Assembly: GCA_018260615.1 (NCBI GenBank)
Contig: JAGWDQ010000037.1
Coordinates: 1 to 10,986 of the forward strand
Reading direction: 5' to 3'
Source of the DNA: Candidatus Altarchaeum sp.
GTDB taxonomy: Archaea > Altiarchaeota > Altiarchaeia > Altiarchaeales > Altiarchaeaceae
Length of the DNA stretch: 10,986 nucleotides
A program made the position numbers and the translations under genes. The stretch's first letter is position 1, and the number at the start of each line of letters is the position of its first letter. Under the pieces are notes generated by a model. It was not told where the DNA came from, made no database searches, and saw only the letters and a list, made by a program, of their open reading frames with translations. Below are positions 3,022-10,908 of the stretch, one piece after another.

Positions 3022-3065
3022 TTTCTGATATTTTAAAACATTCGGAATATAAATATAATAATTAC

Positions 3066-3085
3066 AATCCGAAAATAAAATTTAA
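3066..3085. repeat. 20-bp perfect direct repeat, copy 1
   Basis: aatccgaaaataaaatttaa, identical to 3358-3377. Confidence 0.9.
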
Positions 3086-3163
3086 GTATTTGTTTAGCAC
3101 CACAGAGGCACAGAGAAAATAATTTTAAGTTTGATTTTTGTCTTTATTAGTCCTTTAAAAAAA

Positions 3164-3314
3164 CCTCACACAAAGTCACAGAGCATATATCTCATAGTTC
3201 TTTGTGTCTTTTTCAAAATCAATAGATTTTGAAAATCTCCGAGCATTTCAAACTTGTTTGAAATACACGAACGGAGTGAGCGTAAGAGCGAGGTGACTGT
3301 GTCTCCGTGTGAGG
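3164..3314. mobile_element. Putative MITE/REP-like composite palindromic element
   Basis: Imperfect terminal inverted repeats cctcacacaaagtcacag (3164-3181) and ctgtgtctccgtgtgagg (3297-3314), 15/18. Internal perfect hairpins at 3210-3235 (11-bp stem) and 3245-3264 (9-bp arms). GC-richer than the flanks. Partial copies at 9111-9161 and 10676-10723. The repeats are seen directly; mobility is inferred. Confidence 0.6.
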
Positions 3315-3357
3315 AATTACATTTTAATTATCTAAACAATTACAAATTTAAAATTAA

Positions 3358-3377
3358 AATCCGAAAATAAAATTTAA
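3358..3377. repeat. 20-bp perfect direct repeat, copy 2
   Basis: aatccgaaaataaaatttaa, identical to 3066-3085. Confidence 0.9.
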
Positions 3378-3392
3378 ATTTTTTAATGCCGG

Positions 3393-9106: not shown

Positions 9107-9161
9107 GTGTCATTTTAAACATTTGTTTAAAATACACGAATGAAATGAGCGTAAAAGTAAG
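9107..9161 (+). repeat. Decayed copy of hairpin B plus tail of the 3244-3292 element, overlapping the queE start
   Basis: 41 of 51 aligned columns match 3244-3292. Perfect arms attttaaaca/tgtttaaaat (9112-9133), extendable by gtgt/acac. Confidence 0.8.
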
Positions 9162-9861: not shown

Positions 9862-10908
9862 TTATATAACTTTACATTCCCCTAAAATTTTTTCCGCATC
9901 TTTTTCCAGATTAAATTTATTAAATATTGTATACCTGTCTCTAACTTTAGGTGCAAATTTTAACGCCTCAATTATATATTCCTTATCTATTCCGAGTTCC
10001 TTTGCATTTGTCGGTGCCTCAACATCTTTTAATGCCTCTTTTATTTCTTTCCAGCCTCCTTCGTTTTTATGTGAATAAATTTCATGCAAATAGGCAGAAA
10101 TAATTGTTCCGACACCGCATTGTTCCCCGTGTAACGCATGCTTAAATTTATATTTTTCCGAAAGCACATCTAATGCATGACTGAATAAATGTTCCGAGCC
10201 GGATGAAGGTCTGCTTGACCCGGCAATTGCCATTGCCACACTGCTGCTGAGCAATGCCTCAACCAGAATGCTGATATCAGAAAAAATTTTCTTTGAATTT
10301 TGCATCACAATTTCCGCACTCATATTTGAAAGTGAAGCAGCATAATCGCCAAAGTATTCATTTTTTTCATCCCTTGCCAATTTCCAGTCAAGCACAGCGG
10401 TAAAATTTGAAATCGCATCTCCAAATCCGGAAGCGGTTAAATTTTTCGGAGCATTTGAAATTATTCTAATGTCGGCTATGACTGCGAGAGGAGAATTTGT
10501 TTTAACCGAAACACCTCCCCCGATCGAAGCATAAGGAGATGCAATTCCATCATGAGATGCAGCAGTCGGAATACTTATAAAAGGCAGTTTATTGTTAAAC
10601 GCATAAATTTTTGCTTTGTCTATTGTGCTTCCGCCGCCGATGCCGCAGACAAAACCGAAATTTTGATTTTTAATATTTTCAAAATCAACAGATTTTGAAA
10701 ATCTCCGAACGATAGTGAGGTGAATTTCTTCATCAGGATTTACAAATTCCCCTCCGATTTCACCCTGAATAATATCGGCAAATTTTTTGGTGAAATTTCC
10801 GGAAAAAATCAAAGGACTTTTTAAATTTAACTCATCGCAGACATTCTTGATTTCATAAATTGCTCCTTCTCCGACAATTACCTTGCGGGGTAATTCTATT
10901 TTTTTCAT
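9862..10908 (-). CDS. egsA: sn-glycerol-1-phosphate dehydrogenase (archaeal lipid backbone)
   Basis: GIGGG..ID, PTAASHDGIASP, GFGD..SNFTAVLDW, SSRPSSGSEHLFSHALD, HGEQCGVG. The start is placed at MKKIELPRKV (10908) by family resemblance, not at the ORF-track ATG (10977). Confidence 0.95.
   Translation of the reverse strand: MKKIELPRKVIVGEGAIYEIKNVCDELNLKSPLIFSGNFTKKFADIIQGEIGGEFVNPDEEIHLTIVRRFSKSVDFENIKNQNFGFVCGIGGGSTIDKAKIYAFNNKLPFISIPTAASHDGIASPYASIGGGVSVKTNSPLAVIADIRIISNAPKNLTASGFGDAISNFTAVLDWKLARDEKNEYFGDYAASLSNMSAEIVMQNSKKIFSDISILVEALLSSSVAMAIAGSSRPSSGSEHLFSHALDVLSEKYKFKHALHGEQCGVGTIISAYLHEIYSHKNEGGWKEIKEALKDVEAPTNAKELGIDKEYIIEALKFAPKVRDRYTIFNKFNLEKDAEKILGECKVI
10676..10723 (+). repeat. 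Intragenic copy of hairpin A plus tail of the 3210-3296 element, inside egsA
   Basis: 10676-10710 matches 3210-3244 at 33/35. Perfect stem ttttcaaaatc/gattttgaaaa. The tail cgaacgatagtgaggtga resembles 3268-3296. Confidence 0.9.

Follow-up and report, generated by a model that had tools for sequence, protein, structure and literature searches.

Introduction

Palindromic repeats residing within protein-coding genes have been described in Rickettsia (the Rickettsia palindromic elements, RPEs), in Wolbachia and in Methanocaldococcus jannaschii (PMC2996958; PMC10969869). The RPEs (Ogata et al. 2000, 2002) and the Wolbachia coding palindromes are dispersed, with both intergenic and intragenic copies. 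The coding RPEs are in frame, free of stop codons, located in housekeeping genes and missing from the orthologues of relatives, and, by prediction, the segments that they encode are not part of the structured core of the host protein (PMC10969869; PMC2996958). The hosts of the RPEs are obligate intracellular bacteria; the elements measure about 100-150 bp, and nearly half of the copies in some RPE families are coding. The archaeal precedent is M. jannaschii, for which a citing paper describes palindromic repeats in frame in housekeeping genes (PMC2996958).

The REP/BIME elements and the PATEs, which derive from IS200/IS605, are short hairpins with a conserved asymmetric flank that form composite chains and have neither terminal inverted repeats nor a clear target duplication; the REP/RAYT and IS200/IS605 elements have a Y1 transposase (RAYT/TnpA). 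REPs are classically extragenic. The MITEs of prokaryotes are small, non-autonomous elements of high density, defined by terminal inverted repeats and a target-site duplication, and the QMITEs of Coxiella fuse to ORFs. Among archaea, Candidatus Altiarchaeum hamiconexum is reported to have the top MITE density, with 146 per Mb (PMC11602168).

Here, we analysed contig C37 of a metagenome-assembled genome (MAG) of Candidatus Altiarchaeum, a groundwater archaeon (genome G000; 2.2 Mb, 148 contigs, 33% G+C, 87% complete). This whole stretch of 10,986 nucleotides, hereafter called the window, contains the egsA gene, which carries a copy of a palindromic repeat. Like the RPEs and the Wolbachia palindromes, the Altiarchaeum units are dispersed in intergenic and intragenic copies, and those in coding sequences are, like the coding RPEs, in frame, stop-free, missing from the orthologues of relatives and found in housekeeping genes; the segment in EgsA is modelled as a low-confidence coil. 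The unit differs from the RPEs in its size (48 nt, below the RPE length range), in its architecture of one hairpin with an asymmetric tail, in its host, a free-living subsurface archaeon, and in its coding share, which is about 4% of the copies. The resemblance to the RPEs noted here is one of behaviour, not of ancestry. The M. jannaschii elements, to which the unit can be likened through their description in the citing paper, belong to another phylum. With the REP/BIME elements and the PATEs, the units share the short hairpin, the asymmetric flank, the composite chains and the lack of terminal inverted repeats and of a clear target duplication, while, unlike in the REP/RAYT or IS200/IS605 elements, no Y1 (RAYT/TnpA) transposase was detected for the family in the 87%-complete genome. 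The small size, the non-autonomous nature and the high density recall the MITEs, of which the unit lacks the two defining terminal features. The precedents in Rickettsia and M. jannaschii to which a preliminary description of this DNA had appealed are real (PMC2996958; PMC10969869), and our literature search returned no paper on coding insertions in Altiarchaeum. The Altiarchaeum repeat is a new family, and Altiarchaeum a new host, for RPE-like coding repeats, a phenomenon that is itself known.

Results

EgsA is the enzyme that fixes the stereochemistry of archaeal lipid backbones. The EgsA protein encoded in the window matches the Pfam family Fe-ADH_2 (E 1.8e-26) and aligns end to end with the NCBIfam family NF002022 (383 bits, E 1.2e-114), a score that lies 30 bits under the equivalog cut-off of 413 bits; the second-best NCBIfam family reaches just 81 bits. 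The GGGS glycine-rich loop and the conserved Asp and His columns are present, and G91-G93, D97, D146, H240, H244 and H260 are invariant in an alignment of 34 sequences. A search for egsA across the 87%-complete genome gave a single match and no other copy. Since the genome is a MAG of this completeness, copy numbers, like the missing transposase, are provisional.

Table 1. Features of the egsA locus and related repeat copies in the window
Feature	Position	Strand	Remarks
egsA	9862..10908	minus	NAD(P)-dependent glycerol-1-phosphate dehydrogenase; 348 aa + stop; host of the insertion
Repeat unit in egsA	10675..10723	plus (element orientation)	12-bp hairpin + 21-nt tail; net insertion of 48 nt = EgsA codons 63-78
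Intergenic two-hairpin copy, 87 nt	3210..3296	plus	Same repeat family; within a composite cassette; reference copy of the preliminary description
Partial copy (second hairpin + long tail)	9110..9160	plus	Abuts queE; gives its start codon (ATG 9145) and first codons

The repeat unit is antisense to egsA. Its hairpin is a perfect, A/T-rich stem of 12 bp (left arm, 10675-10686; right arm, 10691-10702) closed by the loop AACA (10687-10690), and its tail, CTCCGAACGATAGTGAGGTGA, occupies the 21 nt from 10703 to 10723. Read on the minus strand from 10722 down to 10675, the inserted codons encode HLTIVRRFSKSVDFEN, in which HLTIVRR comes from the complement of the tail and FSKSVDFEN from the palindrome. 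The hairpin and the tail both lie within the open frame, and the GIGGG motif of EgsA follows 12 residues after the insert; the preliminary description was right in placing an in-frame palindromic repeat of 48 nt before this motif. The coordinates that it gave, 10676-10723, define the same empty site but lie one base off the codon boundaries (10675-10722); both placements yield the same empty site because T flanks both junctions.

Over 38 nt, the segment in egsA has 100% identity with one of the dispersed intergenic copies (C44:63628-63665; blastn-short). As had been described, it also matches the 87-nt intergenic copy of the window at 33 of 35 positions (10676-10710 against 3210-3244), and that copy has, in the same frame, a TGA within its second hairpin, hairpin B. 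The proposal that two deletions and one added nucleotide turned the 87-nt copy into the egsA unit holds as arithmetic (87-28-12+1 = 48), but it is unneeded, because short-tailed, one-hairpin units of 48 nt occur naturally and often in the family; a single internal deletion of a two-hairpin copy of the C44 type would also yield the egsA unit.

How widespread is this repeat? With a 96-nt intergenic copy as the query, BLAST returned 94 matches in the genome, and a profile of the one-hairpin unit (nhmmer) returned 348 at E<0.01. With these numbers in 2.2 Mb, the repeat likeness of the egsA segment is far beyond chance. Each unit of the family has a variable, A/T-rich hairpin and, after it, the conserved tail CTCCGAACG..AGYGAGGTGA. 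In 250 of 278 units, as compared to 34 of 278 controls made by shuffling, the tail is adjoined by a perfectly paired stem no shorter than 6 bp, mostly 10-12 bp; the pairing of the hairpin is kept while its sequence varies, and it is the tail whose sequence is conserved. Units occur singly, in chains, or as two hairpins with a longer tail, and their lengths, measured family-wide, are mainly 46-50 nt. The one-hairpin, short-tail units are common: allowing up to 3 mismatches in the tail gave 38 matches. All three congeneric genomes contain the family (at least 50 matches each), and it was not found in two genomes from other families of the class.

Some units stand in more complex surroundings. 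The 87-nt copy lies in a cassette (3066-3377), where it is flanked by another repeat family, whose arms read CACAAAG-CACAGAG and GTCTCCGTGTGAGG, and by A/T-rich direct repeats that are almost identical (approximately 3060-3091 and 3352-3383). Tandem arrays of units with a period of 47-48 nt occur in the source genome (C111:5942-6173 and C114:1347-2143) and in the congener G003 (C101:4834-5111); the C114 array holds one unit in each copy of a 373-nt tandem repeat. At the partial copy that abuts queE, the start codon and the first four codons of this gene lie inside the element. The queE gene of the congener G002 shares this start, likewise derived from the tail (GTG AGC GTA AAA), while in G001 and G003 the upstream sequence is unrelated and the first codons differ. 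Apparently, the element took the place of the 5' end of queE at a GTAAGAG microhomology.

In a DNA alignment with three other genomes of the genus (87-89% protein identity), the egsA genes of G002 and G003 have a clean gap of 48 nt at the insert site. The egsA gene of G001 (L033) contains a different insert of 21 nt at the same place, which is duplication-like and encodes NEINAEI. The same two states recur among six further metagenomic Altiarchaeum alleles, three with the 48-nt gap and three (L113-L115) of the G001 type. Length variation thus recurs at this loop in the EgsA of Altiarchaeum. The segment is present in none of the 33 other EgsAs of an alignment covering the class and a Nitrososphaeraceae outgroup, and the extra length of the longer Nitrososphaeraceae proteins falls in other columns, which excludes replacement, the case that the preliminary description had left to be excluded. 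Judged from these alignments, the 48 nt in egsA are an insertion and not a replacement.

Among the 19 closest EgsAs of a collection of 5.8 billion proteins, the segment is missing from 18 other proteins of the Altiarchaeum clade. The sole carrier, P0002 (349 aa, 96% identical), has the identical peptide and comes from an independent assembly of other sources. A metagenome scan for egsA returned no insert-bearing allele; the alleles that it returned were insert-free and more distant.

An in-ORF unit was defined as one in an ORF with at least 40 codons on either side of the unit. Only 13 of the 348 units (3.7%) lie in such long ORFs, though ORFs of at least 100 aa span approximately 86% of the genome, and 12 of the 13 are antisense to the host ORF. 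Reading frames through the unit are open in 50-62% of the units in the antisense direction and in 19-42% in the sense direction. We considered stop codons as the whole cause of the antisense bias and set this explanation aside; they predict approximately 61% antisense, which the observed 12/13 exceeds only modestly. A sense GAGGTGA in mRNA, being strongly complementary to 16S rRNA, may be selected against.

The peptides encoded by the in-ORF units have the motif xLTxVRRFSKSxDFEN in common, and the RRFSKS-like peptides whose search had been suggested are indeed present in three unrelated proteins. The archaeosine tRNA-guanine transglycosylase TgtA and a 405-aa protein of unassigned function each contain one in-frame unit of 48 nt, and an MqnA-like protein contains two perfect tandem copies of 48 nt in frame; the congeners have none of these insertions. 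Five coding copies have a cleanly empty counterpart in a congener (EgsA, TgtA, the 405-aa protein and the two in the MqnA-like protein), and all five are stop-free in the host frame and exactly 48 nt long. This filter is expected if the ribosome reads the copies and unexpected if they are spliced out, and from the frame and the filtering of stop codons we infer that the coding units are probably translated.

The congener G001 has insertions of its own. One is located in a variable loop of a 479-aa protein, with a difference of 54 nt from the source genome, and the orthologues in G000, G002 and G003 are without it; another lies close to the N-terminus of a second protein. Weak in-ORF matches in aconitase, PolD DP2, RadC and a DNA methylase were left out of the count of confirmed insertions.

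The AlphaFold2 model of EgsA, built with the 34-sequence alignment, has a mean pLDDT of 90.5, and values below 50 occur solely at residues 62-78, in the insert. This is partly because homologous columns are missing from the alignment. The insert is modelled as a coil between a short helix (58-61) and another helix (76-80), after which come the strand 86-91 and the GGGS loop. The top Foldseek matches are the M. jannaschii G1PDH structures 4RGQ, 4RGV and 4RFL (TM 0.88-0.94, 44% identity), with TM scores of 0.90/0.94 for 4RGQ. Since the model superposes on 4RGQ, the dehydrogenase fold appears undisturbed in the prediction.

At the level of the mRNA, the minimum free energy (MFE) fold of the region around the unit is the perfect 12-bp A/U stem with its 4-nt loop, plus a short, weak 5' helix. 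The hairpin is locally stable, and the fold energy of the insert region is unexceptional (z = -1.5).

We also compared the filled and empty sites for traces of a known mobility system. Neither terminal inverted repeats nor a clear target-site duplication was seen at the junctions: TTTTCAAA... at one end and ...GAGGTGA at the other are not inverted copies of each other, and the A/T ambiguity amounts to just 1-4 nt. A search of the 87%-complete genome for the Y1 transposase (PF01797) gave no match, while the controls responded. Nine TnpB-like ORFs with a Cas12f1-like zinc-ribbon domain (367-540 aa) are present, on contigs C109, C50, C13, C24, C119, C69, C70, C42 and C84. A link to IS200/IS605 was rejected: besides the missing Y1, the units nearest to the TnpB-like ORFs lie 0.04-2.8 kb away, in no fixed position or orientation, and these distances are as expected because the density is one unit per 6 kb. 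The idea that the GAGGTGA of the tail donates a Shine-Dalgarno sequence was likewise dropped, as 4 of 290 units lie 2-14 nt before an ORF of at least 80 aa, against 6.8% of random positions.

Discussion

Insertion: Very probably, a 48-nt unit of a repeat family found throughout the genus Altiarchaeum has inserted in egsA, is read through by the ribosome, and adds a loop of 16 residues to the enzyme. The unit would have entered between codons 62 and 63, in the antisense orientation. This agrees with the earlier proposal of a selfish palindromic repeat inserted in a core enzyme, which is now backed by the orthologues with empty sites, the genome-wide family and the peptide in unrelated proteins.

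Probable read-through: In the orientation and frame of egsA, the unit is stop-free and 16 codons long, so that the ribosome would read through it.

Probable accommodation: According to the model, the 16 added residues would form a flexible excursion in the connection that precedes the strand leading to the GGGS NAD(P)H loop. The dehydrogenase fold would be kept, and the insertion is presumably tolerated with retained activity.

Could the 16 residues instead be ancestral in EgsA and lost in the relatives, or be an equal-length replacement whose repeat likeness is coincidental? The site is certainly variable in length, as the G001-type alleles with their different insert of 21 nt illustrate, and the other Altiarchaeia are about 5 residues longer in this helix than G002 and G003. 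The complete DNA identity with a dispersed intergenic copy over 38 nt, the absence of the segment from every other EgsA examined except the allele P0002, and the insertion of the same peptide in unrelated proteins make this explanation barely credible. Nor is it at all likely that the insertion is an assembly artefact arising from the collapse of repeat k-mers, even in a MAG that is divided into 148 contigs and rich in the repeat: the sequence on either side of the insert is in-frame gene sequence, equally clean insertions of 48 nt occur in several other genes, and the same insert in P0002, a distinct allele from other sources, argues against such an error.

A further alternative accepts the insertion and holds that intron-like excision or ribosomal bypass eliminates the element ahead of translation or in its course, leaving the mature EgsA without the peptide. 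A few archaeal mRNAs are spliced at bulge-helix-bulge motifs, and the unit does make a 12-bp hairpin in the mRNA. Removal would not constrain stop codons or length, yet the five copies with congener empty sites respect both, and the MFE fold offers only the simple A/U stem with its loop and weak 5' helix; we consider removal very unlikely. Finally, the unit may have been co-opted, with the EgsA loop or the DNA or RNA hairpin serving in regulation, as an interaction surface or in translational pausing. The insert is unchanged across two alleles that differ at 4% of their residues, and the peptide recurs with a conserved motif; the former is uninformative because 16 residues at 4% divergence predict less than one change, and the latter follows from recent common DNA ancestry. 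The congeners do well without the insert, and co-option is unlikely.

A broader proposal can be put forward only with considerable doubt. The family might be a transposase-independent hairpin element, selected for its structure, whose unit has taken on a translatable form, 16 codons long and open in its antisense frames. Throughout the genus, it could then settle even in essential genes that exist as a single copy and would continually supply new surface loops. The asymmetric tail, being partly complementary to the 16S rRNA 3' end, would account for the strong antisense bias within genes.

With 16 repeat-derived residues a dozen positions ahead of the cofactor loop, EgsA, a hallmark enzyme of archaea, would represent a natural experiment in insertion tolerance. 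The insertion in egsA, the parallel ones in TgtA, the MqnA-like protein and further proteins, and the lineage-specific ones in the sister species jointly extend the RPE phenomenon to the free-living phylum Altiarchaeota. The filled and empty alleles provide material for testing selfish DNA as a maker of protein loops, and annotators may find that length outliers among Altiarchaeum proteins are repeat insertions.

Two further features of the window were observed. Upstream of a gene for a DUF11/DUF7507 surface protein (268-1380), positions 111-267 consist of A/T-rich tandem and interleaved repeats with periods of approximately 8-21 nt. EgsA itself has a second segment of restricted distribution: residues 276-285 or so (columns 316-322 of alignment A1 and 312-340 of alignment A2), located after a conserved LH, form the stretch EIYSHKN..., which is specific to the genus Altiarchaeum, absent from the rest of the class, and 10-17 residues longer in the metagenomic alleles P0009, P0016, P0018 and P0019.
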